Below the pieces are notes generated by a model, which saw nothing but the letters and a program-made list of their open reading frames with translations, searched no databases and had not been told where the DNA came from. Made by a program: the position numbers and the translations under genes. A stretch of 61,569 nt of DNA, filler included. It is 11 parts of 11 records of this genome, joined end to end, with 100 filler letters (N's around TTAATTAATTAA, not from the genome) between each part and the next. Parts side by side here need not be neighbours in the genome. Positions count along the whole stretch, not along the records: positions 8,695 to 18,232 come from SRR15195285_2057; 10 more parts are not named here. The stretch is one strand, 5' to 3'. Below are positions 272 through 42,063 of the stretch, piece by piece (the stretch's first letter is position 1; each line of letters opens with the position of its first letter).

Positions 272-2389
272 ATGAGTGCCCCTGCTGCCGCTGCTTTCGC
301 GCACTTGGACCCCAAATCGGGCGTCCAGCAGCCATACAGCCCGGAGGACAATGCTCGGATCGTCGCCGCGCTACAGAGCGGGGCGAGCGCCGTCAGACTG
401 AGCGACGTGGCGCTACCAAATGGCACGACGCTGCGATTTGAGGTACGTGTGATTTCACGTCCATTAATGCACTAGTCTGCTTCTCCGCCCGAGTGCAGGG
501 TGATTTCGCCGAGACAGGCGTGCTGCTTTGTGTTGGAAGTTGCACTGCTGTGTACAGTACTGATGAACGCTGCATCGGCGGAGCAGGTACGGATCGGCCC
601 GAACGCCAGATCGAAGAGGTACCCAAGGCCGTCGCCAACGGGGCTTCTGCAGGTCAACGTCGACAACAACTTTTCGCGTGTGGTGGTTCAAGTGGGAGGC
701 GACCAAGTGTTTCGGGCCTCGGCACCGCCCTCGGCGCAGGCCGCTGTTTCCCCGCCGGCGCAACCCGCTGGAGACGCTGTCACAGAGTGGCAGGCGCTAA
801 TACAGCCACCACCGACTGACGCAGGGCAAATGCTTCCGGAAACGTGGCAGAACCTTCCGCGTGAAATATCTGTGATGATGAATCAGGCGCAGATGGACGG
901 CAAGTTTTTGGTGGTGTTACCAGGTACTACATGGCCGGGCGGAAGCGAGGCGAATATGGCTACCAACGAGCTCAAGACTGTTCAAACCGATTACTTCCAT
1001 TGCTTTATTGATCAAACTGGACAAGTTCAGAGGGACCCGTATCCCGAAGAGACCAACGCCATGATCGACGAGGCCAGAAGGCGAGGGGAGGATATCCTGC
1101 GTCTTCCGGACGTGCAAATTCCGGGACGCGTTCTGCGCTTCGAGCTGCGGTTCGGCGCGGCGGCTCGCAGTGACAAGATGCCCCGCGGAGTACCAACGGG
1201 AATGATCCAGGTCAACATCGACGACGGGAACACCCGCGCCGTCGAGGGATGTGAAGTTGTGCACACGTTTCCACTACGCAAAACTCTTGGCGCCCCACCT
1301 GTGGCCGCGGCTCCCCATCCTGCCGCACCTGCACCCGCGCCCGCGCCTGCACCGGCGCCACCACCCGCACCAGCGGGTACAAGGGTAGGACGCCCCCCAG
1401 CTGCCACAGTCGTGCGTGGTGCTGCCCATGGTTCCCAGGCTGTGGACGGTGCTCAGTACATAGCGGCGAAGCTGTCGGACGACCAGGTCCAACGTGACCC
1501 AGATTGGGCAGATTGTGAATTTGAGGAAGCCAGAATGCATACCTATCACTGGCATGCTGGAATCGGTCAGTGGCGTGCCAGTCCGACGACTGTGAGCGTT
1601 TGCATCCAAAAAAAGTTGTTCAACGAAGGGAGTCTCCGAAATGTTTATCAGATGCGACAACGTGACGCCTCTACGGGCACGTGGACCCAGATGGTCGCCA
1701 AAAAGTTCAAGGAAGCCTTGATTGGGGTTGGGGACGTGACCGACGTCAAGCAGTGGCATTACCGTGAGGTCGAGTCGCAAGTCGTCGCGAAGTACTACGC
1801 TGATCAGTTCAATCTGCGTGGGCCCCCAAAGAAGTGTGACTTTATCGTTCAGTACTGTATTGAGATGGTACAGCGTCCAGGACAGCCACTTTACAATGTG
1901 GAAGTGCTGTTTGGTGGGCAGTACGAGAAGCACAACACGAACGGAGGTGCTGTGACCTCCGACAGAAACACGCCGCAGGCCTATACTCACTTCAGCTTTG
2001 AGTGTAGCAAAAGGCAAATGTGCGTGTGCGACATCCAGGGCGTGATGGATATGTACACAGACCCACAGGTGCATACTGGTGACGGGAAAGGCTTTGGACA
2101 AGGGAACCTAGGCGCAGACGGGATTCATCGTTTCCTCGCTTCCCACCGGTGCAACGAGATATGCGCGTTCTTAGGTTTGACACAGCCGAAGATACAGCAG
2201 GAGGAGGTGTTTGTGGAATGCCCACCAAATGCAAGGCCTGGCGAGTATATCGACTGGGCTGCGACCTCATCTGACGGCCAGTCACATGATTGGGAAGTAC
2301 CCACGGGCGCAGTGCCTGGTCAGCAGTACAAGATGGTGGTGAATGTGGTGGCGCCGGAAGACCGCGCGGCGGTTGGTCGAGCAGTGTGA
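272..2389 (+). CDS. Alpha-kinase (eEF2K/MHCK family) with N-terminal WWE-like domains; 2 exons (272-442, 587-2389)
   Basis: Alpha-kinase motifs FNEGSLRNVY, MVAKKF, YNVE..GQYEKHNTNGG, TPQAYTHFSF..VCDIQGV..YTDPQVHT, FGQGNLG..GI..F..HRCNEIC. A phase-0 intron 443-586 (GTACGT...CAG) joins FE|VRIG and restores a domain paralogous to the repeat at about 990-1245. Pro/Ala linker; C-terminal CPP..PG..VP.GA.PG module. Confidence 0.9.
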
Positions 2390-2512: not shown

Positions 2513-5500
2513 CTACCATGATGCCACTGCAGCAGCCATCCTTTGCTTCAGAGTTCCAGCGTTTGTCTGCTGCGTTTGTCTTTCGCTTGACGCCGAAACC
2601 CCCCACAAGTCAGCTACTGCTGCCATCCTTTGCGTTAACGTCAGCGGGTGCGAAGCTTGGTCACCATTGCAGCTGCTCCGACTAGGGGGGGCAGGGCGCC
2701 AGGGTGGGAGCGGTGTGGGGGCGGTCACTCGATGAGGCATCAACAGCGTTTTCAGCTCCGCCCGCTTCTTGTCCACGTAATCCACTACATTTTGTGACTG
2801 CACCGGCACCGATGGGTGCTCCTGTGGTGGTTGATCATAGGTGGGCTGATCAGCCGGCTGTGCTGGTATCCGCGGTGTCGATTGCTCCAGCGAACTCGAT
2901 TTCACTCGACCATGTTCGGCACCGATAGACCGAGAGCTACCTGATCCAATAGTTGTCACTGCACCCCGACGAGCACGCAGCCGTGAAATTGTTGGGTCCG
3001 CAGCGAGGCGATTTCGCTCAATCTCGCTGCCGCGGAGCTGCTGCGGAGGCATCTTTGCAGCCTTGACTACCCCGTCAGGAATAGCACCGATGCCTGCAGC
3101 TTGCGTTGATTCAAACCGATGGGGATTGGGTGTTTTCAGCAGTGGCGGGGGCGATAGACGCGGCGGCTCGGCGGCAGGTGTATTCAACAGTCGGCCTGAG
3201 GCTCCGGTAGCAGTCACGGCACCCCGCCTCTCCCGCAGCCGTGACACCGTCTGCAGTGAAACAAGTTTGGAAGGTATGGTGGGAGGCGGGGGCGGAGGCT
3301 GACTAAGGATGTAGCCACGCTTGCGGCCCTCTTTGGTCACCATTGGTTCTGGCTCCGGCTCTGCTGCAGGCACCGGCTGTGGCCGAGTAGTCTCGCGCTC
3401 CACCAGAAAGTCATGGTTATTGTGTGCAGCAGTGCTAATGCCATCAGCAGTTAAGAGCAGCAGTGCGATATCGTTGAGCTCACCAACATCGGCTGCTCTG
3501 CACTCTGCAAGCATCGCCTGTGCAATGTTGGTTAGCGATGCCCCAGCCTCCCGAGCTCCCGCCAGCAGTTTGCTTGCCAAAAGCACAGCGTCCTCGTTAG
3601 AAAAACATTGCCAAAAGCAGCTTGTGGCAACGATAACGAAATCCCCCTCTTCTAAGTCAGTGCTCGCGACCCCGAGTCGGCTGGTCAGATACGGTGCAAC
3701 CTGTCGCCGCTGACCGATCGCATTCGTGAGTGTCGTACCAGGCAGTGGGTGCACTCGTCTAAAGTGTTGAGAATTCCAGGCCTCGGCTATGCGTTGATCC
3801 TTCATGTGCATACCACCAAGTGCACGTGTGTGCGCATAGAGACCAAGCAGCCCCTTCTGAGCATCCTTGTGCAGTGCGTCAGGATGCTGATGACGGATCC
3901 TCAACCGCTCACTCAAACTTTCACAGCTGTGCTCTGAGGTGAGCTGGGTGGCACCGACTTGCTTTCCACAGCTGTGAACAACACGACACGTGCCAATATT
4001 AGCCACACAAATTCTTTTTGGCTTCGATTGCACGTCAATGAAGATAGCCGCACTGCAAGCGGCAGCAAACAAGCTAGAAGGTTCATCTGAAAATGCTCTC
4101 CCGAATCCTGACTCGATCTCGAAAAATGCACGCTGAAATGCGACCACTGGGCTGCCACCACTAATGTGAAAATGGCGTTGAAATCCTGGCCACAGGCGTG
4201 ACTGTGCAAATTCTGCACACTGCCGGCCATCGTGTCCATCAAACACAGCCGCGAACAAGAACGTGTGGCAGTCCGAAGCAATACAGGTTTCCGTGAAGAC
4301 TTGTGTAGCGAATGCCGGTCTCAAACTCCCCATATGTAAAGATGGGCATTCGGAATTGAAGCAATACAGCACATTCTCTTTGCTCTGTACCTGATTGTGC
4401 CCGACAACCTGAGCAAAGCACCGTGTCCATGGCCCTCCGATCTCATCTACCGACTCGCCTTCAAGGAACATTACCGCTGCGTTTAACTCAACCTGAGACA
4501 CACTCTTGATGTAGCGGACCATACGTTTGCGAACATGCCGCAGTTTCTCCTGCAATATCGCCTTGGCCTCCTTGGGATGATTGTCTGGCTCCAGAGCCTT
4601 CAGAAGCGCCTTCTGCGCCCGTGTAAGAGCAGCAGCTGCCATGACCAGCGAGTCGTGATTGTTCGCATTCGTAGTTTTGTCCGCAGTCAGGGCTCTTTGC
4701 AGTAGCTGGATAGCTGTCTGAAGGTACGTTGGCTGCTGTATGGGTTGGTAAATGATCGACGGTGGTGGCGGCGGTATTCCAGCGCGCTCCGCTGCTGCAG
4801 TTTTCTCCTGCTCGACTTCCTTTTTCTGCTTTGCCTCCAAGAGCCGATCCACAAGCGATGATTGCGGCTGTAGCTGTGACAGAGGGCTTGGTTCGCTCTC
4901 TACTGCTGCTACTGGGCTCGCCACAGTTGGACGTTGTGGCAATGCCTTTCGTCGTGCCTCTTTGGTGGCGTGCATTCGCGATGCTGCACGTCGGCTCTCT
5001 GCCATCCGCTCATAAATACCAACGGCTTTGACCATCTGCTGCATCTCTCCTCGCTGGGACTGTCCGGTGAGTAGTCCAAGCACCTGGTCCATCTGTGACT
5101 GCAACTTGGCAAATTGTGGACCCATGGAGCCGGAGAGTCCGTCAGCTATCCGCGGGCCAGATACCCGTACTACACCAAGCTCCACTGCCACGTTCTGCAA
5201 TCTGTCCTTCAGCGTTCCTTTCATTGATATCCCAGAGGCCTCTTCCACGTGCTGCACTGCGCTCGCAATGATCTGTTCATCGTCCGGTTGGATACCGAGC
5301 TCTTTCTGAACCAACGTAAGCATTCGTGCAACTGTCATTGGCTGTGCAGCCGATGCCGGAGGACTGTCCACCTCGTTTCCTCGCTCCAGTGCTAGGGTGA
5401 CCTGTGAAACAGTTTGACGATCAGTGTCGCTATCATCATCGTGCTGTTCGCGCAAATCATCATTTCCACTGTCTTCTGCAGCTGTGCTCATCAAGTCGTC

Positions 5501-8500
5501 TTCATCCGAGCTCAGACATTCATCTGAGCTCGATTCAGTCACGGCAGGCAAGTGATGCCTATCTGCCGCTTTTGTTGCAGCTTCTGTTGCAGCTTCACTG
5601 TTCACTTCACTGGCTGCTTGCATCAACTTTGGACGTGAGGGTATTTGAGCATGCAACCGCTGATGTTGGTCAGCAGGCATCATCTCTGAGACAGACTCCT
5701 GCGGCTCTTCCATCAGGAGATCTGTTGCCGTGTTCTCGCTGCTGAAGGACACTTGGGCCTTTGCTGTCAACTTCAGGCAAACGGTGTCGCCGTCACCCAT
5801 TGCAACTTCGTTCAAAGTTCGCGCTTCGATCTCCTGCATCTGTCTCCGTGGGAGACGCCTAGACCAACGCACATGTTTGACACAGGAGCTCCACTCCCAC
5901 ACTGATAGTTCTTCAATATCTGAGCGCTGCAGACCATGTAGACGACAACTTTGATCGACTAGGTCATCTAGCGAGCAGAATGTTGACGCCTCCATAGATT
6001 TGAGCTGTCGCGGAACTGCATCGGATGCAGCTAGACCCACACGAAGTTTGGGGGGGGACACCTCAACCCCATATCCGTGCAATCTTTCCCAATAAGACCA
6101 ACGCCGTAGCTCTGGCCCTCCACCATACCATCCGACAAGCATTCGCCACACTGTCTCGCTGACGAGATCAAAGTCTACACCTTCCTTGAGGTGCAAGCGT
6201 GTCAGGCCATCAAGTGTCAGCAAACTAGAATTGTCGATTGGGCCTGGATGCAAGCTACGTTCCCAGTAGTTCACGTGGTCTAGCCAGCTCATCATCCACC
6301 GATGCGCAACAAGGTACCACGCTGTACCGCTACTGTCTACCTTTGCAGCAAGATATTCTTCCATTGCCGCACGCTCTGCTTCAATATTCTGCAGAGGAGT
6401 ATAGTGTCGAGAAGAGGTCGCCAGAGTATCCTGTGAGCTCAATGCGTCCACTCTTGAGTGATGATCATGATTCATTCCCTGGCTAAGCTCAACCACATTC
6501 TCAAAAACTTCGGTGCGAAACGCCTTGTCAACTGCGCGAACGATCACATTGCTTTCTCGCAACCGAGCAAGTAGAGCAGTAACGCTATTAGGCCCATGCC
6601 AGCGAGCAAATTTGCCCAGCCGCAGCAGCTGTGCCAGTTGCACCTCGTCGGTGACGGCTGCTTGGAGGATCTCGTGCGGTAGGAGCGACCACTGAATACA
6701 CAGCAGGCATCCAGCAAGGTAGCGAAAACGACCTTGGACGTCTGCCATGACCCAGCGCAACACCAGCTTCAAAATGATCTCTTCTGAGCGCACGACCAAC
6801 TCTGTGCTTTGGATCACAGATAGCAGTGAATTGCTGCACATGGTCTCTATATCACTTTCTGGGTCTGCCACCAGATACTCCAGGAGGCGCACGATGAATT
6901 TCCAACAGTACTTCGCTACCCTCTTTGCTCCTACTCTATGTCCAGCATCATACACCTCGCAGCATTTACCTTCCGCTGCCCACCGAGTGATTGCAGCGAA
7001 GCTCTGTTCCATTGCTGCCGATACACCATACCGGTCCGCACATTGATAGAACTGCACAGTCTGTACGATTGATAGGCGCACAGGCAACCCGTACATGAAG
7101 TGTATCAGGCTAGCGAATGTAGATGCATCTTCGTCTGGCAAAGAGATGGGAACTCGTAGGAATCGACCCGGCTTCTGCTGTGAGCCAATCAGACGCTTGG
7201 CATCTGTGCCGTACAGGTTGTGAAAGAGGTTGAGTCTCTGCGCTATCATTTCTGCAAATGCAGTAGCCTGCTCTAGTACGCCACGATGGGTACACCACTG
7301 CTGTCGAGATAAACCAACCGTGATCAGCACGTCACCTTTCCGCCGGAACGTTATCGTTGCGCTAGAGTCGTCAGACTTCCACTGCGCTGCAACTGGTGGT
7401 GTTGTCAATCTCAGCACAATCTGGGATGGCAGTTGTTGCTCGCCCATTGTCTCGACCTGTGGTGACTGCAGCCACTGAATGACCGCCGCAACTTTCGCTG
7501 CGGGCCAAGCAGCCACACAGCTACGACGACGCAGACGATTGCGCGCCCGGTGGCCACGCCACAGGGCCTGTATCCTCGTCGCTTTCGGTGCGCGGCTAAT
7601 GTTACGGTACGAAAGTGCAACCAGTTTGCGTCGACAGTGTGCCTGAACCTTTGGTAGAGACTTGCGGTGGCGTTTGACTGATCGTCGGTCGAATCTCCCA
7701 CGAGCAACAGCTTGCAAGCGGATCAATATCTGTTTGGTTCGCAAGTACCACTTCTGCACTCTCAGCCTTCGCGCACCGCTTTGAATGACAGCGGCTGCAC
7801 GATGTTTGGTTCGACTTTGCAGCAGTGCAGCGTAAGCATTTCGGCGTGACTGCGCCTTCTCTGCTTCGATTGTATACCTGTATACTTCCCGCGCAGCGTA
7901 GAGTGTATCCATGATCCTGTCCGGAACGTCATCGCGATAGAAGAAATCTGGATGCTTGTTCCCACACTCAAATCCAGCAAAGACCCATGGCTGTGTAACT
8001 TTGGAACTGAGAAATCCATCTGTCACAAACTCGGTTGCGTCTTCACACTTTGCACAGTATCTGCAGACATCTACACTTAAGACGTCTAGTGACTCGCTTG
8101 CTTTCTCCATCAACATCTGCACTGAACCGAACCACAATGGGCTACCGGCAAGCACTTTTTGACGTCGCTGCTCCAATTCAAGCGCCCGCAGCTCTAACTC
8201 GTCTGTGTCTGACAACAAATCGTCAAATTCGGCCGCAGTAAATGCTCCAGCCACTCGATCTGCCAAGGGTTGCAGCTGAACATCTCGTGGATTTTTCCCG
8301 TCGGCCTCCTTTCGCGCTGCAGTGATCTGCCTTACAATCTCAAGCTCTGTTGCAACACCGTTCGACCTCAGTGATATCTCCAAGGCACTGATAGCTCCAA
8401 TGGTGAGGCTGCGCGACCTCGCCGACATGTGCAGCAAGCTGCAGAGCTGCAGCTCTGAGAGACCAGCGCTCACGACTGGAGCTAGCTTCTGGTCGCCTCC

Positions 8501-8594
8501 TTGTCGTAGCACCGTCTCCAGCTCGATAAGCTCTGCATCAACTAACTCAATCCTCTTGTCTCCTTCCTCGTCATCTGCTCCCTCGTCTTCCGAG
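2513..8594 (-). CDS. Large multidomain protein, 5'-truncated: IQ motifs, BTB/POZ-BACK, DUSP plus Ubl-like, MIT-like helices, degenerate PP2C domain, Pro-rich tail
   Basis: Uninterrupted ORF of about 2000 aa, open up to the linker. IQ motifs AAAVIQSGARR, LQAVARG, ATRIQALWRGHRAR; BTB/BACK HRGVL..AFAEM, FMYG, ADRYGV, LVVRSEEIILKLVLRWV; DUSP WYLVAHRW..W..PGPIDNSSLL..LKEGVDFDLV..W..L..WYGGGP; PP2C FAAVFDGHDG, ICVANIG, QLTSEH, TRALG. Confidence 0.85.
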
Positions 8595-8694
8595 NNNNNN
8601 NNNNNNNNNNNNNNNNNNNNNNNNNNNNNNNNNNNNNNTTAATTAATTAANNNNNNNNNNNNNNNNNNNNNNNNNNNNNNNNNNNNNNNNNNNN
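8595..8694. other. Artificial contig linker (N44-TTAATTAATTAA-N44)
   Basis: Identical 100-nt spacer with stop codons in all six frames, present 10 times in the window. Confidence 0.98.
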
Positions 8695-8966: not shown

Positions 8967-9159
8967 TGAATGGGCCTATGAACCGGCACATGTACGGCAC
9001 CGCGCGGGGTCCGACGCCGAACTCGGAGTCAGAAGTCGCAGTACCGTAGTTCCTGCAGAATTGTATACAAATTCACTATGGTTTTGAGGACTTCGGGAAA
9101 TCGTATGTAAATACGCGAGGCTGCTCCAGCCGAACGTCGTCGTGGTGTCGCTGGTCGGG

Positions 9160-12100
9160 ATGGGGCGGCAAAGGCTGGTTGTCGCGGGCTTGCTGGCGGC
9201 GTCGGTGGCGAGCGTGGTGGCGCAGCCGGGGCGGTTTGATCAGGCCGGCGGCGGGCAGTATTATCAGGGGGGCTTGTTGGCTAGTTGCGATGTGACGGCG
9301 CCGTGCTCGAGAGAGTGCGGGCGCCATTTCGTCCCGCTGGTGAGCGAGTGCGCCGCGTTCTTCGAGGCCATGAGCGAGGAGCCGCCCGTCACCAACGCGC
9401 CCGCGAAGCAGGGCGCCGACGTCTCGTTCCTGCAACATGCGTGGGAGTTTGCGGAATCGTGCCCGGATCCGGTGGAATCCACCAGAGATCTGCTCACCGC
9501 GCACTTGCCGTACGCTGGGCGGCCAGGCGTAGTCGCGACGTTGACGCAGTGCGGGTTCGTCACGCAGGATGGGGCACCTGTGGACGGCTCCGACCTGCTG
9601 GATGCGCACCCACGCGACGCAGACGCGTGCGATTCGCACGGATGTGCACATTCTGTCAACACAATGATACACCGGTGCATGCATCAGCTGCCCGAAGCAA
9701 TGGGCTGGGGAATTGAACAGCAGCAGGCAATTCACAACCTTGGACCTGGTAGCGCGGTCCAGTGGAAGCCCTGGTTCCGAAACTTCCAGCGATCGTGCGC
9801 CTCCAGTGGTGGGAAAAGCGCACCGCCACCTCTGCGGCCGGATGGGCACAGAGAAGGTCACCCGCGTTCGCATCGATGCGAGCACAACCGTTTCCGTGCA
9901 ATCTTTCTGCTGTGCGATCTCATCGATTTGGACTCTGCAGTCGGGCGACGCAGTCTGCAAATGCGACCGCCGCCACATCGCGGGCCTTCACCTATGCACG
10001 GGCCTGTCGGCGACCCGCCGCACCGACCGGACGGTCCGCATCGACCGGACAGTCCACATTATCCTGGTGGTTTCAAGTCCCACCTCTCCAACTTCTTCTG
10101 CGGAGATAACCTTTGCCAGCTTCCGAGCGACACGATAAACGAGACGTTCCAACAGTACGTGTGCGGACAACCAGTGTGCACGAGGGCACTGAGGGTCTCT
10201 GCCGGCGAGTGCATGGACACGCCAAGTTTAGTTAGCGACGGACTGGGCCAGTGTAGCGGTGACGAAGCGCTGCCGAGCAAAGCAGTGGATGACGCCGACG
10301 ACTCTGTGTGGAGCCAGCTACATATGACAGTCGTCCTCGAGCTCAACCAGTCATCCCCGATTGTGGGCGTGAACGAGACGTTGGTGCAACAGGTGGTCGC
10401 CGCCGCTTTGCAGGTGCCGAACTCTGCCGTCCAAGGCCTAACTTTCGGGGGGGTGCGGCGTGTGCTTCAGGCGTCAGCAGCCGGCGTTGCTGACACGGAA
10501 AACTCGACGGTCGCCTTTCAGCTAATGCGCACAGGATCTGGCAGCGGAGCTGCGGCCTCTTCGGGATCAAGCTCGAGCGCTACTCCCTCCACTGAATTAG
10601 ATAGTCACACGGTTCGTGAGCGGCTAGAGCCTCTACGAGCAACACGCATAGACATCCAGGAACACGCGATAGCTACAACGGCAGACGGTCATACGCTGGG
10701 CCCGCCTACAGGCGAAACTGGTGGCACAGCCGCCAACCCGCTGGTGCTGGTGCTGGCGTTTTTTGCCGTGTCTGCAGGACTAGCATTTGTTCTGTCTAGT
10801 AAGCATGAGAAAGTGAAAGACGCTGGCGGTATGGTCCACGCACCTCTGGTGTTTGGCGGTGGTGGTGGGCAGGTCAATCCGATGGCTGCGGATCCGGATC
10901 AGCAAAACGGGAACATCGATGTCGAAAAGATAGGTCGTGATGATATGGTGCCCGTTCCAGCTGACACGTGTGAACCCTCCGCACTGACGAGGGGCAGGAG
11001 TAGCGGCAACGGAGCTGACAGTGAGGACGAAGACCCTGGCGGAAATCACAAGCGATTCCGCGCCGCCTCCGAAACAGACAGCTCCTCAGAGGCTTCTGGT
11101 AGCCCACGGAATTCGTCCGATGAGTCAGTAGTCTTGGGCGGTGAAGCTTCAGGTTGGACAAGTGAGGAAGCTGCGAGCTCCATCGATGAGACTTGCGTTT
11201 TTGACACTCCTAGTTCCTTGGCCTTGTACGAAGACATGGACGAGGGAGTTTTCGACAGTGTCGAATTGGATATGGCGTTTGGCGTTGCGCATGACCTGGA
11301 TCCGACATCAGGCTTGAATCTGTCTGAAACGGCCGATCACCACAGAGATGAATCAGGCGGGAGACAATTTGTGGCACCACCCGCTGTGGGCGAGCCGCCG
11401 GCATCTGATCTGCCGCCAAACTGGGAGATGAGGTACACACCCAACGGTCAAGCGTTTTTCATTGATCACAACACACGTACAACCACGTGGACTGATCCGC
11501 GACACGCATCGAGCACGCCTCCGGTCGTGCATTTGCCGCCGGATCGCGCAGTGTTGCCAGAGCCCAGTGCAGGAGCTCTGGGCACTTTGGGTGCAGCATC
11601 AGCCGGGGCACTCGACTCACTGGGTTCTTTCGAGCTGGACGACAGCGCCTTAGCTGAGTTGCCACTATATGAAGGCAACGACGTTGTCAGCGCTGTCGGG
11701 GCCACGGTGTTTAGTGTCGCGGTCATGGTCCAGCAACCTGTTCCGACCGCCAGACCAGCACCGCCTCAGGGTGGCGCTGTTTGCGGAGGATCGCGGCGGC
11801 AAGGGATCGCCCGTGCTCTGCCACCAGTTGCCCCGAGGGGGAAGATGGAGACCTCCCAGCCGCAAAGCAAGCCGAATCCGAGAACCCTGAAACAGATTGG
11901 CGGCGCGTTGGAGTTGGAGCCTCGACCGGCGCCTAACCGACCTTTCGCATGCACTGTTCCTGGTTGTACATACACCGCAACCAAGGCCCGTTATGTAACC
12001 GAGCACATGAAGGTGCACACAGGCGAGAAGCCTCACAGGTGCACAGTGCCAGGTTGTGGATATGCAGCCAGTGGATCGGGGCATTTGCTTCGCCACATGC

Positions 12101-12515
12101 GCACGCATACTGGCGACAAGCCGTACCAGTGCAAACACCCAGGGTGTGGCTACGCTTCGTCTCAACCGACGCACCTGAGAGCCCACATGCGAAAGCACAC
12201 GGGAGAGAAGCCGTACGTCTCTTTCTGACCGACTCAGCCTTCCTTCAGAGCTACTATATCTTTTGGGTGAATGCTTCGTGACTGGCTTGCACCCGCTAAA
12301 TGTGACCATCTGTTCATGTTCTACATGGTATCTAATCTAGCTCCGTGTCCTATGTACGCAGGTTTCAATGCTGGGTGGACGGCTGTGATTACAGAGCCGC
12401 GCGCTCTTGGCACATTACTCGCCATGCCAAGACAAAGCACGGCGACGCGGCGTTGTCCTCGCGGCCTGAGAAAATCGAGCCGAGCGCCGATACACGTACC
12501 CCAACGCCAGAGTAA
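9160..12515 (+). CDS. Type-I membrane protein: signal peptide, Cys-rich ectodomain, single TM helix, cytoplasmic WW domain and 4 C2H2 zinc fingers; 2 exons (9160-12212, 12362-12515)
   Basis: Signal peptide [43 protein letters not shown] followed by SSKHEKVK (about 10738-10818); [33 protein letters not shown] (about 11410-11502); three C-x4-C..H-x3-H fingers with TGEKP/TGDKP linkers. Splicing intron 12213-12361 (GTACGT..CTAAT..CAG) adds a fourth finger [26 protein letters not shown] and a TAA stop at 12513. Confidence 0.88.
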
Positions 12516-12912
12516 CCGGCCACGGCAGGATGAAATTTTATCCTGGAGTTTTGAAATGGAGTTTGCCTGTTGGTTTTGGCTGGCATTACACTTGTCTGAC
12601 GGCATCCAAGCACACACACAGCTATTTGCCATCAAATTGGGCCGTCATGCATGCATGGTTCCCATCGTATCGCGCATCATGTCGCACATGACACTCGTGC
12701 CCAAGAAGCTGGGCACTGCTGCGGTTCGAGGCACGAGCCAGGATCCATCGCACGACGGTTCGCGATCCGTTCGCCTGGAGTGCATCTTGGATCTTGAGAG
12801 ATTCCGCGTTACATGTAGCGTGGGTCACACTGCCTGCCAGACGCACGCTCACACGCACACGCGCCGGGGTACCCTCTGTACAGTACTAGATCTAGCAGGA
12901 ACTTCATGACAT

Positions 12913-13344: not shown

Positions 13345-16300
13345 ATGCGCTCCGGAGGGCTGCTTTTCGCGGTTGCAGCGCTGGTTTCCCGGCCCGAAAC
13401 GGCGGCACAGGATGCGTGTCACGACGCAAACACGCAATGCGCCGTGTTCCTTGACCTCGGATATCCGTGCTCGCACGAGCTCACACCGGGCGTGCTGCTC
13501 TCGGACCAGTGCCAGCTGTCATGTGGTGTTTGCACCTCGGCTGCGGCTGCGCAACCCGCCGATACCGCGCCTACACCGTCCGTTCCTGATGCTCCCGAAT
13601 GCCGCGACTCGATGACGAACTGCGAGAGCCTACTCACGGCGGGCTACCCGTGCTCCTTCGAGCCGGTACCAGGACAATCTCTGTCACAATTCTGCCCGCT
13701 GTCGTGCGGCATCTGCGGCGGGCTGGGCTGCCCGGGGAACAGCATCGAAGATTGCGCTGGGCACTGTGTGCCAGTCGCCTACGTTGGTGATGGTGTGTGC
13801 GACAATGAGCCAGGTTCAGACTTAAACTGCGACGCTGGCCAGTGGGACGGCGGAGACTGTGGAGAGTGTGGCGTCGCAGTCGGTGTCTTGGTCACCGTCA
13901 CCGTCACGACATACGGGAATGAGATCCGGTGGCAAATGAATGATGCAGGACTGACGTACGGTAACTATCCAGATAATCAGCAAGCTGTCCGTGGCATCTG
14001 CCTCGAGAGCGGAGTGGACCACTTTCTCAACGCGACCGACGCGCTGCACGACGGCTGGCATGGTGGGTGGTTTTCTGTGCATGTTCGTGAGAGCGGCCGG
14101 TACCTTGTTCACCCCACCCCGGTTCACGGCAGCGGACATGTTGCCGAGTTCTCCACTGAGATCGACTGCACGGCTCAGCAAGTTATCAGCTGCTCGGGTG
14201 GGTGTGTGCCAGCGTTCTATGTCGGCGATGGTACGTGCGATGACAGGACGCGAGCTCGTGGCTGGCACCTTGACTGCGCTGAAAACAACTTCGACGGCGG
14301 GGACTGCCTGTGTAGGTCCTTCGATCCAGAGGCCTGCGGCTGTGCTCCCGGGGAGATTGTTAGCTGCGAGATGGAATGTGCGCCGGGGGAGTTCCTTGGC
14401 GACGGAGTGTGCGACGGCCCTGATGCATATCGCGGGCATGATCTCAACTGCCCAGAAAACACAAACGATGGAGGAGACTGTGAGGACTTTTGCTACTCCA
14501 CATCCATTGTGGACCGTGCCACACACGAAATATTACTCAGCGCTGCCCAGCCAACCGAGGAGCTTGTCCTTGGCGACGACGAGATGTCGCTTCCTATCGA
14601 GTTTGGATTTGACTTCCCCTTTTATCGGCAGCAATACAGAGCTCTTCGAGTGTCGAGCAATGGCTTCGTGGCGTTCGACTATCGTTCTGAGCATGGATGC
14701 TGTGAAGGCCGTGAGCTTCCCGACCTGGACTTTGGCAGCCTGATTGCCCCATACTGGGAAGACATTGATCCAGCTAGTGGCGGGACTGTACTGTACGGCA
14801 GCAACAGCAACACCTTCATCCTACGCTTTGACGCAGTGCCGCACGCTGAGCGGCCTGCTGGCGGAGACACGACGTGGAACCTGATCCTACACCGGGATGG
14901 CACCTTCTTTCTGGATTTTGAACGCGCCATTGGCGACGGTGGGATGCATACTGTCGGCTGGCAAGAGCTCGGGGCTACCCAATATCAGATGCTTTGCCAT
15001 GGTTCCGGCAGCACAACTTGCCAGTATTCAGATATTACGCTTGAAGTATCGTATGAGCCCAGCCATGTGCGTGACGAGTGTGGAGTCTGCGAAGGTGATG
15101 GCTCAGCGTGTTTAGGATGTGACGGCGTTGCACATTCTGGCTTAGTCGAAGACGAGTGCGGTGAATGTGGAGGGGACGGTACTGCATGTGGTGGTTGCCT
15201 CGACGAGCGAGCTGAAAACTTCGACCCTGCGGCGACCCAGGACTTTTGGTGGCTGTGCGAATACGAGGGAGGCTGCCCTGAAGGCGAAGTGCTTTCGTGT
15301 GATGGATCTATGTGCTCTGGAACGCAATATATTGGCGATGGGCTCTGTGATGGAGCCGATATGGTTTTCGGTGTGAACATGAACTGCAGCCAACACAATT
15401 GGGACGGTGGTGACTGTCTTGGGTGTGACGACCTGCATGTCACTACTTGTGATGGACAGTGTGTCTCCGCCGATACCTGGGGCGATGGCTACTGCGATGA
15501 TGCCGCTACAGCAGCTCTGAGAGGATCGAACGGGTTTATCTTGGACTGTGAAGAGCTTGAATACGATCATGGAGACTGTAGCGATAGTTGTCCAGACGGG
15601 CAGATCGAGTCATGCACAGGTGAGTGCACGAGCGTGGTGTACCATGGAGATGGAGTGTGCGACGATGAAGCAGCTACTACGGGCATACACTTCAATTGCG
15701 AAAGACTGTGGTATGATCTTGGCGATTGTGAGCAGCAAGGACAGTGCGCATCACATGAAGATTGTGCAGCTTGGCAGACTACGGGGCCGATGTACTGCAA
15801 TGCGCAGACCACTTGCCAGGAGTGCCGTCATATCTCTACTGCCATGTGTGACGTGCTCGGAGGCGATTGCTGTTCGGCTGATTTCATCTTTCATTGCGGA
15901 GATCGTACTGACTGTGAGGCTGTACCAACGTGCAGGGACCATGAAATTGTCAGCTGTGCGAATCTTTGTGCACCAGAGATCTTCATCGGAGACGGCATCT
16001 GGTGAGCCCCACATCCACATTCGCGTGTCTTTGTGCCTCTGCTGAAAACGGTCATGCGCAGCGATGGAGATCGAATCGGCAGCCATCATCTGGACTGCGA
16101 GGAATTTGGGTGGGACGGAGGGGATTGCCTCTGTGGTAACGATATGGTCCGCTCGTGTACTGGGTCTTGTTCACCGGCAGAGTAACACCTCCATACAAAC
16201 CAAAACAGTCAATGCAACATGCACTTGCACTAATCTCGTTCACGCGTTTCAGGTATCTGGGCGATGGAATCTGTGACAGCGACGACGTTCCCGGCGGGCA

Positions 16301-18232
16301 TCATCTGAACTGCTCAGCTCTTATGTATGACGAGGGCGACTGCACAGGTAGATGTCCTGACCGTCAGATCGTTGGATGTTTTGATGAATGCATTCCAGCC
16401 GCGTGGCTTGGGAATGGCGTCTGCGATCACGAAGGATTCCGAGGGACTCAAAGTGCAGATTGTGATGCCCTCGGGTGGGATGGGGGCGACTGTGTACATG
16501 GGTGTACAGATGCTACTGCAGATAACTTCGTTCGCAATGCGAATGTCGACGATGGCTCTTGCCAACGATTGGGGTGCACTGACCCTGATGCAGACAACTA
16601 CGACCCATTGGCCAACGTTAACGATAACAGCTGCCTTTTAGAGGCATGTATGGAGCCAACTGCGTGCAACTACCACCCATCTGCAACCCACGCATGCGCG
16701 AGTGATCCCCGAAGACCTGAGTCTGATTGCTGTCGCTATGAGCTCCCCGAAACGTGCGACGAAAGGCGCAGTACGTGTCAAGAGCTTTTTGGGCAAGAGT
16801 GTCCATGTGAAATATACGAGCCAAGAAACACGATAGAGTACAGCGGTTTCATCTATGCAACGCTGGACGACATGCGGCCTTCGGTTGGCGGGTATGGCGG
16901 CACGTCTTTGGAGGGACAGCGCTGTCCAATGGACGACCCCGAGTGCCGAGGATCCTCGTGCGCGTGGGGGCGTGCTGGGCAGAATTACTACTTAAAGTTG
17001 CCTTGTGGATGGGATCTGTTCCCCATCTTGCATTCGTGTCATCATCACATATGGGAAAACATTGTTCCGCAAGCATGGGGGACAAGATGCATTGTTGACA
17101 TCTTTTCACAGGTGCCTCTGTGGTCCCTTGGACCTCAAGCTGGAATGCAAGGCGATGAGGTGGACTGGGGACGTGATGGGAACGTGCACAGTGTTGCCAA
17201 CGAGTGTGGTGAACAAGGCAACGGATTTGTCTCATCAAACAGCGCACGCAACCGCTTTTGGTCTTCGCGCTATGCAACATTCACCCCGCATGATGGTTTT
17301 AAAGCAGAAGATTGTGGCATGCGTTTTCTAATTCGCAAGCCGATCGATTGTGAATACGCGCACGTTGGATGTGACGGAGTTGACAACAGTGGGTTGACTC
17401 TAGACGAATGTGGGGTCTGCGGTGGCGATGGTACATTGTGCGCTGATGTCTGTGGAGTACCTTACGGCGATGACAGCTCTTGTCAAGACTGCGCGGGCGT
17501 TTCGAATGGTCTGTCGTACGAGGATGTGTGTGGCGACTGCGACGCCGATCCCTCTAATGATGGCGACAAGTGCGTCGGGTGTGATGGTGTTGCTTACTCC
17601 GGGGTCGCTGAAGACCAATGCGGCATCTGCGGAGGAGATGGACACCAATGTGCAATGTGCATTGATCGCCCTGAGTGCCCAGAGTGGATGGCTGCGGGCT
17701 ACCCATGTGACCTCGTCCTGAGTAACATCGAGCTCAGGCATTTGTGTCCAGTTGAGTGCGATCATGACGCCTGTGGATGCAACGGACTCGGCTACGAATT
17801 TGGAGGTCTTCGCGAAGATGTCTGCGGTGTTTGTGGGGGAGACAGCTCGACATGCATTGGTTGCGATGGTGTGCCCCTCGCTGATGGTGGCCTAAGGCTT
17901 GATGTCTGCGGTGTTTGTGGTGGAGACGGTGAATCTTGCATTGGTTGTGATGGAATTGTCAACAGCGGTCTGAACTGGGATGTATGTGGAGAGTGCGACG
18001 GCCATGGAGTATCTTGCACTGGTTGTGACGGTATCATCAACTCTGGTCTGGTCAGGGATGAGTGTGGGGTGTGTGCAGGCGACAACACACGCTGTGCCGG
18101 ATGTGATGGCGTTGCAAACTCCGGAATGGTTGTGGACGAATGTGGTGTATGCGGTGGCTCCTCAGCGTGTCTTGCACCCGCCTGTGAGACGGGGGCGGAA
18201 ATACAGGATGGAACCAACTGCGTAGACTGTGT
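13345..18232 (+). CDS. Large secreted/surface Cys-rich protein, 3'-truncated: ShK-like domains, many LNR/Notch-like repeats, NIDO-like domain, GCTD..A.NY and D.CGVCGGD repeats; exons 13345-16001, 16062-16181, 16253-18232
   Basis: Signal peptide MRSGGLLFAVAALVS; ShK-like C..D...C......C.....CxxSCGxC twice; repeated GDG.CD....LNC.....DGGDC; NIDO-like FGFDFPFY..QY..L.VSSNGFV.F..IAPYWEDIDP. Introns 16002-16061 and 16182-16252 restore the repeat frame (GDGIC|DGD.., PAE|YLGDGIC). Confidence 0.88.
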
Positions 18233-18332
18233 NNNNNNNNNNNNNNNNNNNNNNNNNNNNNNNNNNNNNNNNNNNNTTAATTAATTAANNNNNNNNNNNN
18301 NNNNNNNNNNNNNNNNNNNNNNNNNNNNNNNN
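18233..18332. other. Artificial contig linker
   Basis: N44-TTAATTAATTAA-N44. Confidence 0.98.
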
Positions 18333-19500: not shown

Positions 19501-20150
19501 AGGTGGCGCCTGTGGTGCAGCTAGCCTGCCACCGCACGGCTCTCAGCTACCCTTTTTGCCAACCTTGAGCCGCGGACCTGGAGCCCTCTGCTGGTACCCA
19601 CCACGCGGTGGGTAGGGCTCGGCGCCTCTAGGGGTATACGTACGGTCGTACGGCGCGCGCGCGCGATCATGCACCGGCGCCACCGACCGGCAGGGGCGCG
19701 CATCCGGCATCGCCATCGGCGTCTACCTGGGCACTCCGAACCCGGAGCGCGGAGGGGTTAAAGGGGTATCCGCGTATCCGACGGACCGTATCGATGAGTA
19801 GTCTTGAACGGTCGCTCGCGGCGGCTCGGTCGATCTTGTATCTTCGCCGCGGCCGCCGCAGTGCATCTGCATGCGCCAGATGTTGGCGACATCTCTAGGC
19901 GATCGATGCCTGCGCTGTGACGGCAGCAGCCAGCCTGCCAGCCGCTGTGATAGCTATGTCTCTCTGAGGACTCGAGAGATCCAGCTAGCGTACCGGGCTA
20001 CTACTTCACACGGGACGGATGGGCAGCCAGACAGATAGATCGACTGGGGGGTAGCAGGCAGACTGGCAGGTTAGCGGGCGGACGTCTAATCCCGCGGCCG
20101 GCGCTTGATCCGTCGCTTGATCTGCAGGTTATTCTCGCTCCCGTCACGAG

Positions 20151-23100
20151 ATGGAGGAGTACGAGTGCGGCGAGGTGCTGGGGCGCGGGGCGTTCGGTGC
20201 GGCCTACAAGGTCACTCGCAAGCGCGACCACAGCGACTTTGTCATCAAAAAAGTGGATGTCAGCCGGATGCCCGAGGAAGAGAAGAAGGAGACGAAGCGT
20301 GAGGTGTTAATCATGCAGAAGCTGGCTGAGCTGTGTGACCATCCGAACATTGTCGCATACTACGACTCGTTCCTGGACAAGGACTCCAACCAGCTCTGCA
20401 TTGTCATGGAGTATGCCGATGCTGGCGCGCTAAGTGACATCGTTAAGGAACACAAAAATGCAGGCACTCAGCTTCCGCTCAAATTGATCTTGCAGCTGTT
20501 TACGCAGCTTGTCTTGGCAGTGCGCGCAATGCACGATGTCAAGCCTGCCGGTATCCTGCATCGTGACCTGAAAACACAAAATGTCTTCTTGAAGCGCGAG
20601 GCGCAGTCTGGACGGCTTGACGTCAAGCTTGGGGACTTTGGGCTCTCAAAAAGCCTGAAGGAGGATGAGATGGCCAAGACCATCGTGGGTACACCATACA
20701 ACCTAGCCCCCGAGCTCTGCCAAGGCCTATCCTACGCCAAACCTGTCGATGTGTGGGCGCTGGGCTGTGTTCTGTACGAAATCACAACGACACGGCATGC
20801 TTTCGAAGGGTCATCTCTCCCAGCGCTGGTCATGAAGATCATGCGTGGATTGTGCCCATCCGTGAGGGAACGGCGCTACTTTGAGAATGGAGAACATGTC
20901 TCAAGCGAAGAGCCTAGCGAGACGGAGATGAATGATGCCGAAGAGATGAAGGATGGCGCTGAAGATCCCAGGCAAGTCATCGAAGATATTGATGACCTCA
21001 TCAGTCGCTGTTTGCAGGGCGAGCCTGTGCGTTGCCTTGCCGGTCTACGAATGCTCCCCAATTTCTAGCTGTTGCATGCGAGCGCGTGTGCAACGCGCAA
21101 ATTCAACGCGTGGCGCTGCGTTTGCAGGATGACCGCTGCACGTGTGACAAAATGTTAGGGCACCCACTATTAATGCGTCGTAAACGACAGGAAGAGCACC
21201 GCCAAGCACAAGACCGTGAGGCGCGCTTAAAACTCCAAGAATCGTTCGCTTTGGCTGGCGAAGATGCGTCTACTGCTGCCCGCTTAGGTGAATTTGCACC
21301 CACAGCAGCCGAGGAGCGTGATGCGGAAATTCAGGCCCGTGCCGTACCAGTGGCCGCACCTGATGTACCCCTGGAGTGGGGTGCTGGCCGGAGACACCCT
21401 GCGCCTGTGCAAAACTGGGAGAAAAAGGACGTTGCTCGCCCTGGAGCAATGAAGGTGTTAGGAATGTCAGCACAATATGATGGCCGCAGGGAGCGTGATT
21501 TTCAGCTATTAATTACAGACGGAGGAACTTTGCTCTCGCGTGGCAAAAACTGTCATCATGGTCAATTAGGACAATTCAATCCAGATATTGACGCTGGGCT
21601 GTTTGCGCCAGTGCATGGGCTGGAAGGCTTGTGCATCCAGCAAGTTGCGTGTGGCACTGTACATGCGTTGGCGCTCACTGATGATGCGCGGGTATTTTCA
21701 TGGGGATCGGACTACGAAGAGAAGCTCGGAGCGCGAGCTTCTGATGGTAGGCTTGGATACATAGCCAGCCGTGTGCCAGTCACGATACCGAAAGAAATCG
21801 AAGCGCTTCGACCAGAGAAGCGCTTTCAGATCATTCGCCCTCTCCCCCTGTTCGTGCGACGCAAGGATATCGACAAGGCGATCGAAAAGGTGCTAGCACA
21901 AAGTCCAGAAGAAGGTGACAAGATTTTGTTGATGTGGAATCACATTGAGCATTGGATTCACCAGCGCGAGACACAACGTGGTCGCGGCAATGGTGCTGGC
22001 TCGTCGAGAAGAGAGTCTTCAAATCCGGCCGAGGTATTGATCGACGGATTCTTTCAGGTTGCGGCACTTAAAGATGCAGTGGTGGCGCTCCACCAAGATC
22101 CAAATGTTGATGAGGGCAAAGGTAAACTTGTGCTGGAGCATTTGCGATTGCAATTTGTGCCCTCAGAGCTAAGACCTCCCTCTCAGATTGATGAGCTCGC
22201 GGCGATTACATTGCACGGCAAACGTTGGATGCATGTCAGCGGAGATCGACCAGAGGGCGATTTTGTTGACGAGACATCAGCATTCTACACAGATCAAGAC
22301 GACGAGCTGCAGTGGTCAGCGTGGGTGTGGCAACCAGAAACATCGACGCAAAAAGTAATGACGGAGATAGTGAAACGGGACAATGTGGTGAGCATTAGTG
22401 CGGGAGAAAAGCACTCTGCTGCTATCACAGACTCTGGCAGACTTTTTTGCTGGGGCTGCGGCAAAGACGGTCGCCTTGGCAATGGTAGTGAAGACAACCA
22501 GCATGAACCTGCTGAACCAGTTGAGTTTGTCACAAAGAAATGGTCTGATATGGAGGCAGATGTGTTGGCACAGACAAGCGATGGACGGAAACAGCTTGCA
22601 AAGTGGTTGCGCGAGCACTGCGTTGAGGATGCGTCGACCAATGGGGCAATTGACGGAGCCGCGGTAGTTGACGATGGTGCCGCGTTGTGCCGCCTTTACT
22701 TCAATTGCCGTCCGTTCCTTCGGCAGGAACGTATAGTTCAAGTCGCGTGTGGCAGTGGTCAAGACGGCTTTACTCTAGCCATTTCCCAAACTGGTGATGT
22801 ATACAGCTGGGGCTATGGAGAGCGTGGACAGCTAGGGCATGGACAGGAAGATGACGTGTCAGCGCAACGTTCACCGAGGCATATTGTAGCGCTTCGTGAG
22901 AAAGTAGACATCTATGGTCGCGTAACACAGGTAGCCTGTGGCGAAGCTCATGTTCTGGCGCTGACTGAGAATGCATCAGTGATTGCGTGGGGCGAATCAG
23001 GCATGGGTCAATGTGGAGTCCATCTAGGTCAAGAAAGCAATGCGGCAGCAGGCGCTGCCGATGGTTACGGTTCGGACGACTCCTGTGGGACATCTACAGA

Positions 23101-23962
23101 TATCGACACCATTGTGTGGAATCCCCGAGAGATAACAGAATTGCTTCCGTCTCCCTCACCTAATGGCATCGACGAGCGTCTCAATGAAGCATGTGTGCCA
23201 CAGCGCATGCGTTGCGAGCAGGCTGTGGGTGACCGCGTGGTACAAGTCGCTGCCGGAGCAGAGCATTCTCTAGCTCTTGTCGATGCTGGTCACGTCCTGA
23301 GCTGGGGCAAAGCCGGTTATGGCGGAAACGGTCCCCTAGGGAGACGACTTTCAGAGAAAGAGAAGCGCGATGGATGCTGCGCAATGCCCAAGTTAGTGAC
23401 GACAGCACCACCAGCTGGTCAGGATCGCGGTGACTTCCTGTTCGATATGTGCGTTGCCGTGCATTGATGTACCGAGCTTGCACTAACCGCTGTTGCTTGC
23501 TCCTGAGCTGGAGAAATAATAATGCTGTTGGTGCCGTGCAGGTTCGATCGTTACCGAGTTGTCGCACGAGGCGGGGTTGCAGTCTATGCAAACCCGAGTC
23601 ATTCCTCCCCAGTGATATACCACTTTGCGCAAGACGATGAGATGAGCGTGGATCGCAAAACTGATGAAAACGGAATGGTTTGGGTCCACCATGCACACGG
23701 TCTGGGTGCCGACGATATTCTCGCAGGTTCACCGCAGATAGCAAAGCCTGGAGCCGTAGGGGTGGGCAGTGACCAACGTGTTAAGCGTGATATAGATGGG
23801 GATGGTCAAGGTTGGATACCCATCCTCAGCAAAGCGGGCCAAATCCAGATGCAGCAGCTAGAGCGTCGTAAACCAGTCAGGCTTATCCAGGCTGCTGGCG
23901 AACGCTCGTTTGCTTTCACTGGAGACAAGAAACCGTTGCGCCGCCACCTCTCGCAAATCTAA
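20151..23962 (+). CDS. NIMA-related kinase with C-terminal RCC1 repeats (NEK8/NEK9-like architecture) and an SH3-like insert; exons 20151-21026, 21128-23448, 23542-23962
   Basis: Kinase motifs GRGAFG, VIKKV, HRDLKTQNVFL, KLGDFGLSK, TIVGTPYNLAPELC; RCC1 blades VACGTVHALAL..VFSWG, ISAGEKHSAAIT..LFCWG.GKDGRLG, VACGEAHVLAL..WG. Introns 21027-21127 and 23449-23541 both start GTGCGT and end CAG. Confidence 0.9.
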
Positions 23963-26869: not shown

Positions 26870-26969
26870 NNNNNNNNNNNNNNNNNNNNNNNNNNNNNNN
26901 NNNNNNNNNNNNNTTAATTAATTAANNNNNNNNNNNNNNNNNNNNNNNNNNNNNNNNNNNNNNNNNNNN
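26870..26969. other. Artificial contig linker
   Basis: N44-TTAATTAATTAA-N44. Confidence 0.98.
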
Positions 26970-31274: not shown

Positions 31275-31374
31275 NNNNNNNNNNNNNNNNNNNNNNNNNN
31301 NNNNNNNNNNNNNNNNNNTTAATTAATTAANNNNNNNNNNNNNNNNNNNNNNNNNNNNNNNNNNNNNNNNNNNN
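31275..31374. other. Artificial contig linker
   Basis: N44-TTAATTAATTAA-N44. Confidence 0.98.
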
Positions 31375-34775: not shown

Positions 34776-34875
34776 NNNNNNNNNNNNNNNNNNNNNNNNN
34801 NNNNNNNNNNNNNNNNNNNTTAATTAATTAANNNNNNNNNNNNNNNNNNNNNNNNNNNNNNNNNNNNNNNNNNNN
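34776..34875. other. Artificial contig linker
   Basis: N44-TTAATTAATTAA-N44. Confidence 0.98.
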
Positions 34876-38859: not shown

Positions 38860-38959
38860 NNNNNNNNNNNNNNNNNNNNNNNNNNNNNNNNNNNNNNNNN
38901 NNNTTAATTAATTAANNNNNNNNNNNNNNNNNNNNNNNNNNNNNNNNNNNNNNNNNNNN
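38860..38959. other. Artificial contig linker
   Basis: N44-TTAATTAATTAA-N44. Confidence 0.98.
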
Positions 38960-41963: not shown

Positions 41964-42063
41964 NNNNNNNNNNNNNNNNNNNNNNNNNNNNNNNNNNNNN
42001 NNNNNNNTTAATTAATTAANNNNNNNNNNNNNNNNNNNNNNNNNNNNNNNNNNNNNNNNNNNN
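41964..42063. other. Artificial contig linker
   Basis: N44-TTAATTAATTAA-N44. Confidence 0.98.

Follow-up and report, generated by a model that had tools for sequence, protein, structure and literature searches.

A marine protist gene for a predicted type-I membrane glycoprotein with a WW domain and C2H2 zinc fingers in its tail

The stretch of DNA analysed here (61,569 bases, hereafter the window) holds, at 9160-12515 on the + strand, one expressed two-exon gene of an uncultured marine protist, which encodes a 1068-amino-acid (aa) predicted type-I membrane glycoprotein. Its signal-peptide-like N-terminus, Cys-rich ectodomain and single membrane span are followed by a tail with a WW domain and four C2H2 zinc fingers. 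The gene is real, expressed and conserved, its architecture was not found described, and it stands among the membrane-tethered transcription factors if, as we infer, its tail is released. That the protein is a transcription factor held at the membrane and freed by proteolysis is a proposal that we consider evenly poised, with cleavage, nuclear entry, DNA binding and the recruitment of WW partners as the steps that it would entail.

Gene model, transcript and relatives

The frame at 9088-12228 (+) is open over 1046 codons, and an in-frame TGA at 9085-9087 closes it upstream of the ATG at 9160. Exon 1 (9160-12212, +) is stop-free, with 21-40 stops in each of the other five frames across the same interval, and the chance of 1017 stop-free codons, calculated from the base composition, is about 2e-15. 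It is followed by an intron of 149 nucleotides (nt; 12213-12361, +; GT..AG, with GTACGT...CAG, phase 2) and by a last exon (12362-12515, +) that encodes the rest of the third finger linker, finger 4 and a short tail up to the stop codon TAA at 12513-12515, which gives a spliced product of 1068 aa. The splice itself is seen in RNA, as a 613-nt metatranscriptome contig (X3 record 21) joins 11765-12212 exactly to 12362-12526, with GT..AG ends and 165 nt on the shorter side. One stop-free frame with a zinc finger array completed by a short terminal exon had been proposed from the letters alone (hereafter the original prediction), and both were found as proposed: the frame is open over 9160-12212, its splice to 12362 is carried by RNA, and finger 4 lies in exon 2.

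The RNA contigs compared with the gene come from four marine metatranscriptome runs. Besides the spliced contig, others lie over 9046-9266, 9690-10167, 10350-10776 and 10801-11951, while contigs of X1, X2 and X3 cover 12362-12579 and one of X1 (record 6, 12103-12305) runs unspliced into the intron. The 149-nt intron is the only joint that appeared in these four runs, and exon 1 showed none. A gap in RNA coverage at 10777-10800, inside the codons of the membrane span, is uninformative either way. The original prediction had looked for a single transcript over the span and the fingers; the absence of any joint in exon 1 speaks for it, but no single record reaches from one to the other, so that the continuity of the transcript rests on overlapping pieces together with the open frame. 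In a word comparison, 24 RNA runs of marine or seawater origin, belonging to 15 studies, had words in common with the region 9000-12700; the shares were 0.06-0.33, below half in every run.

The 5' leader (9046-9159, +) is represented by contigs X1 record 1 (9046-9158) and X2 record 13 (9120-9266) and has upstream ATGs at 9078 and 9105, the first of which opens an upstream open reading frame of 10 codons ending with TAA at 9108-9110. The X1 leader contig lacks four bases at 9103 and diverges from the window before 9046, differences that suggest strain variation. At the other end, the X1 and X2 contigs, which come from one study, both leave the window sequence at 12579, in the 3' untranslated region, and continue with the same letters as each other; this departure could be either a strain difference or a further joint.

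Relatives of the protein are few. A word-indexed protein search scored 7998 candidates and left seven at E<=0.001, namely the gene's own product, three true relatives (P0003, 1059 aa; P0004, 1106 aa; and the fragment P0005, 790 aa) and three proteins that match by their fingers only, with 9-14% coverage. An exhaustive search with aa 1-930 against 1.84 billion representatives returned 1926 matches at E<=0.001, and among the best 150 of them only P0003, P0009 (768 aa, with partial ectodomain, span, WW domain and fingers) and the two N-terminal fragments P0010 (308 aa) and P0011 (504 aa) match outside the WW domain; in the remaining 146 the best stretch lies within residues 705-823, the WW region. 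The translations of the relatives run on into the intron and are thus derived from unspliced sequence. In P0003, P0004, P0005 and P0009 (56-77% identity) ectodomain, span, WW domain and fingers stand in one frame despite many substitutions and in-frame indels, and the co-linear arrangement thus recurs in four divergent environmental sequences. The protein therefore represents a small family without detectable distant kin, and for its ectodomain too nothing related was detected outside this small clade. A scan of the JGI metagenomes with the family alignment produced 162 pattern matches and one locus (L001), which is alike in its fingers only (38%, residues 924-1019) and is unrelated, and tblastn against the 61.6-kb window found no paralogue of the 1068-aa protein, the only match being the gene itself.

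This co-linearity bears directly on the most prosaic explanation, by which the gene would be an artefact, either a contig assembled as a chimera or a pair of neighbouring genes with frames that continue into each other by accident. The assembly is indeed fragmentary, made of short contigs joined by spacers, but the gene lies entirely within one contig (8695-18232), five independent and divergent sequences, the window included, share the same co-linear frame, conserved motifs continue across the supposed junction, and an open run of this length has the negligible chance given above. A chimera or two genes read together is unlikely on these grounds, and we regard the artefact as very improbable and close to refuted. 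Indeed, none of the outcomes that the original prediction had set against itself (removal of the span by splicing, separate transcripts, lack of a signal peptide or span, a chimeric assembly) was seen.

A subtler alternative accepts the gene but assigns it two products: the long form would be a decoy or a precursor with little activity, and the working factor a soluble protein of WW domain and fingers, arising from an internal promoter or start or from alternative splicing that skips the span. It has a precedent in the span-less alternative transcripts of 18 Arabidopsis membrane-bound factors, as far as the available text of PMC9237531 presents them, and it gains something from the fact that no RNA record spans the whole gene. 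The intron is, however, the only joint that those runs contain, the alignment shows no conservation of the sole Met close to the fingers (aa 896), and the aa 1-930 search found no soluble relatives of the tail linkers, 146 of its best 150 matches being to the WW region alone. We hold the two-product explanation to be distinctly improbable.

The RNA contigs differ from the window at 33 positions, of which 32 lie in coding sequence or in the stop codon (15 silent and 17 residue-changing). The residue-changing variants cluster in the linker at aa 603-699, and all four variants in or just after the WW domain (aa 759, 780, 789 and 799) are synonymous. Within that linker (10966-11254), eight of the nine differences are at the first position of a codon, and seven of them alter the residue, most often exchanging one small residue for another, which looks like relaxed constraint on a low-complexity linker. 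Another reading frame was considered for this segment and rejected, since the alternative + frame is open only over 11132-11317 and the alignment of the relatives follows the main frame and preserves its motifs.

Ectodomain, membrane span and tail

The modules announced by the original prediction were recovered in their places. The start codon and signal-peptide-like N-terminus occupy 9160-9222 (+; aa 1-21, with ...VVA followed by QP), and the hydropathy peak at aa 6-24 (Kyte-Doolittle 1.78 over 19 residues and 2.56 over 11) has its counterpart in all five N-termini available (P0001, P0003, P0004, P0010 and P0011; 11-residue peaks of 2.27-2.65), as expected from the signal peptide first proposed. 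The approximately 505 aa ahead of the membrane span contain 18 Cys and four N-x-S/T sequons, in keeping with the Cys-rich ectodomain of about 500 aa that had been described, and none of the 18 Cys is lost in any relative that covers it (77/77 cells). The N-terminal Cys-rich module (9286-9915, +; aa 43-252, 12 Cys) is mostly helical, with 54-72% identity to the relatives, and appears in AlphaFold as helices with a predicted local confidence (pLDDT) of only about 55-70. A low-complexity spacer rich in Pro, His and Gly (9916-10098, +; aa 253-313; 34-72% identity, with in-frame indels among the relatives) separates it from a small Cys module (10099-10254, +; aa 314-365, 6 Cys; 57-70% identity), with its Cys retained in 4/4 to 5/5 of the covering relatives. 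The ectodomain had no detectable kin outside the clade by other means either: no Pfam family was found for aa 22-527 at E<=5, the best Protein Atlas scores for aa 22-560 were 0.81, 0.79 and 0.76, all below the 0.9 level, and the AlphaFold model of the whole ectodomain (mean pLDDT 38.3) was unusable, Foldseek returning 0 matches with it at E<=0.001.

Next to the membrane lies a juxtamembrane domain (10303-10674, +; aa 382-505; 68-86% identity), with sequons at N396, N405 and N448 that are kept in 4/5, 5/5 and 4/4 relatives, respectively. AlphaFold, run on aa 336-527 with five relatives, arranges it as beta-alpha-beta-beta-alpha-beta (E-H-E-E-H-E), with pLDDT 66-80 in the core block, a mean of 52.3 and a predicted template-modelling score (pTM) of 0.47. 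SEA domains and the heterodimerisation domain of Notch have this same order of elements. Nevertheless, Foldseek matched the model only to generic ferredoxin-like folds (best E 3.9e-3, 0 at E<=0.001), for which reason no specific relation to either is claimed; with no specific fold and no Pfam match, the common topology is a resemblance only.

Of interest for a release mechanism is the sequence RRVL (10456-10467, +; aa 433-436), a candidate target of a luminal protease, located where the flexible loop from strand 2 to strand 3 begins. The pentapeptide RRVLQ is identical in 5/5 sequences that cover it, and the loop (model residues 97-113) has pLDDT<50. The site-1-protease site of SREBP-2 is RSVL. 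From its sequence and position, we take RRVL as a candidate for a first cut.

A single transmembrane helix follows (10738-10797, +; aa 527-546; 70-100% identity to the relatives), with a Kyte-Doolittle peak of 2.6 at aa 528-546 and the basic stretch SKHEKVK immediately after it, precisely the one helix with trailing basic residues that had been reported. A peak of 2.32-2.6 is present likewise in P0003, P0004, P0005 and P0009, and the net charge flanking the helix is -1 on its N-side and +1 on its C-side. The ectodomain Cys and sequons, set beside the three Cys of the tail outside the fingers, none of which is kept in the relatives, and the asymmetry of flank charge point to an outside that is oxidising and glycosylating, with the tail in the cytosol. 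The predicted orientation is accordingly type I, which would place the DNA-binding-type fingers on the cytosolic side of the span. A second span at aa 839-857 was considered (score 1.55) and rejected, because its hydrophobicity is not conserved: the stretch is not hydrophobic in P0003, P0004 and P0009.

The tail of about 520 aa is largely low-complexity, and its conserved elements stand out as islands. The basic patch KRFR (11050-11061, +; aa 631-634) and two acidic/hydrophobic stretches (aa 689-707 and 824-834) are where they had been placed; KRFR is present in 5/5 sequences covering it, within a conserved KRFRA(A/T)(S/T) that leads into a Ser-rich acidic run. We take it to fit the K-(K/R)-x-(K/R) pattern of nuclear import and, with the next residues, presumably also an R-x-R-x-x-S kinase-type site. 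The WW domain (11410-11499, +; aa 751-780; 70-82% identity) is as canonical as first claimed, with a Pfam WW match at E 1.7e-11 (44.4 bits against a cut-off of 26.9) and with W755, W777 and P780 invariant in the family alignment. Its best solved relative is WW3 of NEDD4-like (NEDD4L; 49.4 bits), followed by domains of Itch, WWP1, Su(dx), YAP1 and Smurf2, although here a single WW domain sits beside fingers on a membrane protein and Pfam finds no C2 or HECT domain. WW domains of the NEDD4 family and YAP bind PPxY-type ligands, and the closeness to NEDD4-like WW3, Itch and YAP1 points to PPxY-type partners for the present domain too. LPLY (aa 834-837), tried as an internal ligand for the WW domain, was rejected, its Tyr being His in P0003 and P0004. 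Further on, the motif SRRQGI..ALPPV (11788-11835, +; aa 877-892) is identical at 14/16 positions (87%) in each of four relatives, between linkers of 15-59% identity.

The protein ends with four fingers of the C-x4-C-x12-H-x3-4-H pattern at aa 931-953, 961-983, 991-1013 and 1021-1044, of which fingers 1-3 (11950-12198, +; aa 931-1013; 90-97% identity) are in exon 1 and finger 4 (12369-12440, +) in exon 2. They are joined by TGEKP, TGDKP and TGEKP, the last completed across the RNA-supported splice. Pfam recognises the array as zf-H2C2_2 (E 1.5e-15, 57 bits against a cut-off of 40) and zf-C2H2 (E 1.1e-6, 29.2 against 25.2), while finger 4 on its own is below the zf-C2H2 cut-off (14.8 bits, E 0.042). 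By its pattern, its Pfam scores and its TGEKP-type linkers this is a Krueppel-type C2H2 array, and its best solved relatives (ZNF568, Aart, PRDM9, CTCF, ZNF410 and YY1) are DNA-bound arrays. The likeness to such arrays suggests that these fingers may read DNA sequence-specifically.

The same tail allows for a different function, in which the fingers would not be on DNA at all and the protein would be a membrane-proximal scaffold whose WW domain and fingers take RNA or proteins as partners, for instance in receptor trafficking tied to ubiquitin or endocytosis. The WW domain is indeed closest to those of the NEDD4-family ligases, which act in trafficking, and C2H2 fingers are generally able to bind RNA or protein. 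Against a scaffold, three TGEKP-type linkers, an array at 90-97% identity and DNA-bound solved relatives are the marks of DNA readers, and both the basic patch and the acidic stretches are conserved. We consider the scaffold rather unlikely.

Taken along the whole protein, identity falls from the fingers (90-97%) through SRRQGI..PPV (87%) and the WW domain (70-82%) to the linkers (15-59%), and conservation of the span (70-100%) exceeds that of the entire protein. From the alignment, this pattern reads as modular selection on both sides of the membrane.

Release from the membrane and comparison with known systems

In the mechanism that we propose, the outer domain would sense a stimulus and so permit cleavage near or within the membrane. 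A first cut might fall at the RRVL loop of the juxtamembrane domain, and a second one could be intramembrane or juxtamembrane, for which the conserved helix is a candidate intramembrane substrate. The freed tail would then enter the nucleus by means of KRFR, the fingers, or both, where the fingers would bind a fixed DNA target, the acidic stretches would act on transcription and the WW domain would recruit a PPxY partner. The RRVL motif, invariant and set in a low-confidence loop of the domain that abuts the membrane, gives the Notch-like logic of the original prediction a concrete candidate site. Of the surface-to-nucleus system envisaged there, one gene encoding one protein of that architecture has stood, and release, nuclear entry, DNA binding and PPxY recruitment are what we infer from it.

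Notch is the natural standard for such a mechanism. The two have in common a predicted type-I orientation, a tail that is proposed to act in the nucleus, and an alpha/beta domain abutting the membrane with a basic loop motif, positioned like the furin S1 loop of the Notch heterodimerisation domain. Unlike that of Notch, the tail of the present protein has a DNA-binding-type array of its own rather than serving as a co-activator, neither sequence nor any specific fold relates the two proteins, and no EGF, LNR, NOD, RAM or ankyrin domain was found here by Pfam (in the ectodomain at E<=5). Lacking EGF, LNR, RAM and ankyrin domains, it is not a member of the Notch family.

The other well-studied membrane-tethered factors are type II proteins with bZIP, bHLH or NAC domains, as against Notch-like co-activators that need a separate DNA-binding partner. 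SREBP, ATF6/CREB3 and bZIP17/28 in particular are type II or hairpin proteins with an N-terminal bZIP or bHLH domain, whereas the present protein is type I with C2H2 fingers at its C-terminus. The orientation being opposite, it falls outside the known kinds of site-1/site-2 substrate, and a different class of intramembrane protease would be needed; any likeness to these factors and to Notch in the way it works would be one of logic. What they share is a DNA-binding factor held at the membrane together with a luminal R-x-hydrophobic-L motif, RRVL here and RRIL in the available text of PMC9237531.

The pairing of a span with C2H2 fingers is not new in itself, given that 70 C2H2 members are counted among 1,089 membrane-bound factors predicted in silico from 14 plants, according to the accessible part of PMC5694209. 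These plant proteins likewise combine C2H2 fingers and a membrane span in one chain; their spans are mostly at the N- or C-terminal ends, and in that same part of the paper no protein is described that combines a signal peptide, a conserved ectodomain of about 500 aa and a WW domain (PMC5694209). Engineered receptors come nearer in design: synNotch and SNIPR, as presented in the available text of PMC10761793, have an extracellular sensor, a cleavable membrane core and a released transcription factor, zinc-finger-based ones included. The present protein would follow the same plan if its tail is released; the engineered receptors are, however, built from the Notch core, while this gene is natural and its core unrelated (PMC10761793). 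The author of the original prediction knew of no characterised type-I receptor with its own C2H2 array. Full-text searches of the literature, supplementary tables being outside their scope, retrieved no natural one in the text accessible to them, but the combination of span and C2H2 fingers had already been predicted in plants.

Several observations weigh against release of a transcription factor and keep our judgement of it at an even balance. The known site-1/site-2 substrates are type II, the opposite orientation. C2H2 arrays can bind RNA or protein as well as DNA. The signal peptide and the membrane span were judged by hydropathy only, aided by conservation and by the asymmetry of Cys and sequons, and in the four RNA runs no single record extends from the codons of the span to the fingers. 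More than half of the coding variants in RNA (17 of 32) change a residue, and most of these changes lie in linkers. Confidence in the fold of the juxtamembrane domain is no more than moderate (mean pLDDT 52.3), its Foldseek matches are generic, no SEA or Notch chain is among the matches listed for aa 336-527, and Pfam gives no SEA match. Finally, RRVL resembles the site-1-protease motifs RRIL (the plant site) and Rx[LIT][KL] but departs from the latter consensus at the third place, where V is not listed. RRVL is only four residues long, and the review of plant membrane-bound factors that gives the consensus considers motifs of this sort, being short and degenerate, no proof of a substrate (PMC9237531, in its available text).

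The strongest competitor of the release mechanism is one in which the tail never leaves the membrane. The protein would reside in the endoplasmic reticulum or the inner nuclear membrane, its nucleoplasmic fingers binding DNA while anchored, so as to tether specific loci to the nuclear envelope or regulate them there, much as bacterial factors of the ToxR/CadC type act at the cell membrane, and the luminal domain would sense conditions in the lumen. Architecture and topology fit this as well as they fit release, a conserved helix is equally expected where helices pair with partners, and a tail of about 520 aa is near, and not clearly above, the size that passes to the inner nuclear membrane. 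For a pure tether, though, the RRVL loop and the activation-like acidic/hydrophobic stretches would be superfluous, and the long flexible tail with its WW domain resembles signalling tails. Moreover, Pfam at E<=1 finds only WW and C2H2 families in the whole protein, with no domain for tethering to lamina or chromatin. We regard permanent anchoring as unlikely.

Returning to proteolytic release, its fuller form would be a one-protein route from surface to nucleus, independent of Notch, in a marine protist lineage: a ligand or a force would be sensed outside, the ferredoxin-like juxtamembrane domain would be cut at RRVL in advance or on demand, and an intramembrane protease would then free the tail, a complete factor with import patch, activation stretches, WW docking site and four-finger DNA reader. 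This we put forward tentatively, as a possibility on the doubtful side. If true, a type-I receptor with a full C2H2 tail would be the shortest conceivable pathway from surface to gene and a natural counterpart of synNotch-type receptors, evolved convergently outside animals, and protists would have reached such logic independently. Its expression at sea in runs of several studies makes the gene a live part of plankton biology. The outer and juxtamembrane domains, having no detectable relatives, may offer new sensor and cleavage modules for receptor engineering, and the fixed four-finger array would provide, through its DNA motif, a direct handle on the genes controlled.

The window and neighbouring genes

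The 61,569-base window is a chain of short contigs with ten spacers between them, each consisting of 44 N, TTAATTAATTAA and 44 N and carrying stops in all six frames (8595-8694, 18233-18332, 26870-26969, 31275-31374, 34776-34875, 38860-38959, 41964-42063, 45192-45291, 49011-49110 and 53912-54011). Gene neighbourhood is for that reason meaningful only within each piece, and a long frame running up to a spacer represents a truncated gene; the receptor/zinc-finger gene is wholly within the contig at 8695-18232. Pfam on the long frames of the window recognises an alpha-kinase, a BACK-DUSP-PP2C-IQ combination, a NEK-type kinase next to RCC1 repeats, LRR, sulfatase, alpha-galactosidase and ShK, families that identify the source as a eukaryote.

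The next gene in the same contig, at 13345-16002 (+) and perhaps continuing into 16140-18230, encodes a very Cys-rich product with a signal peptide, an ShK domain (E 1e-5) and a weak NIDO match (E 0.01). Many repeats of the form C..C...GDG.CD...C....DGGDC run along it, which we take to recall the LNR modules of Notch, and Pfam makes no LNR call on them. Its product has a single environmental relative at 79% identity (P0158), plus weak bacterial or environmental matches.

Signalling domains also occur in other contigs. A frame at 476-2386 (+) contains an alpha-kinase domain (E 1.4e-43), and one of more than 2000 aa at 2516-8593 (-), cut by the contig end, unites IQ, BACK, DUSP and PP2C phosphatase domains, an unusual combination for signalling. 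The NEK-type kinase frame at 20121-21065 (+) overlaps, in another phase, an RCC1-repeat frame at 20996-23464, and 20121-23464 is probably one Nek8/9-like gene with an intron or a frame change between its parts. This kinase has seven environmental relatives at 79-98% identity, and its best organism-named matches, from many phyla, are at <=48%.

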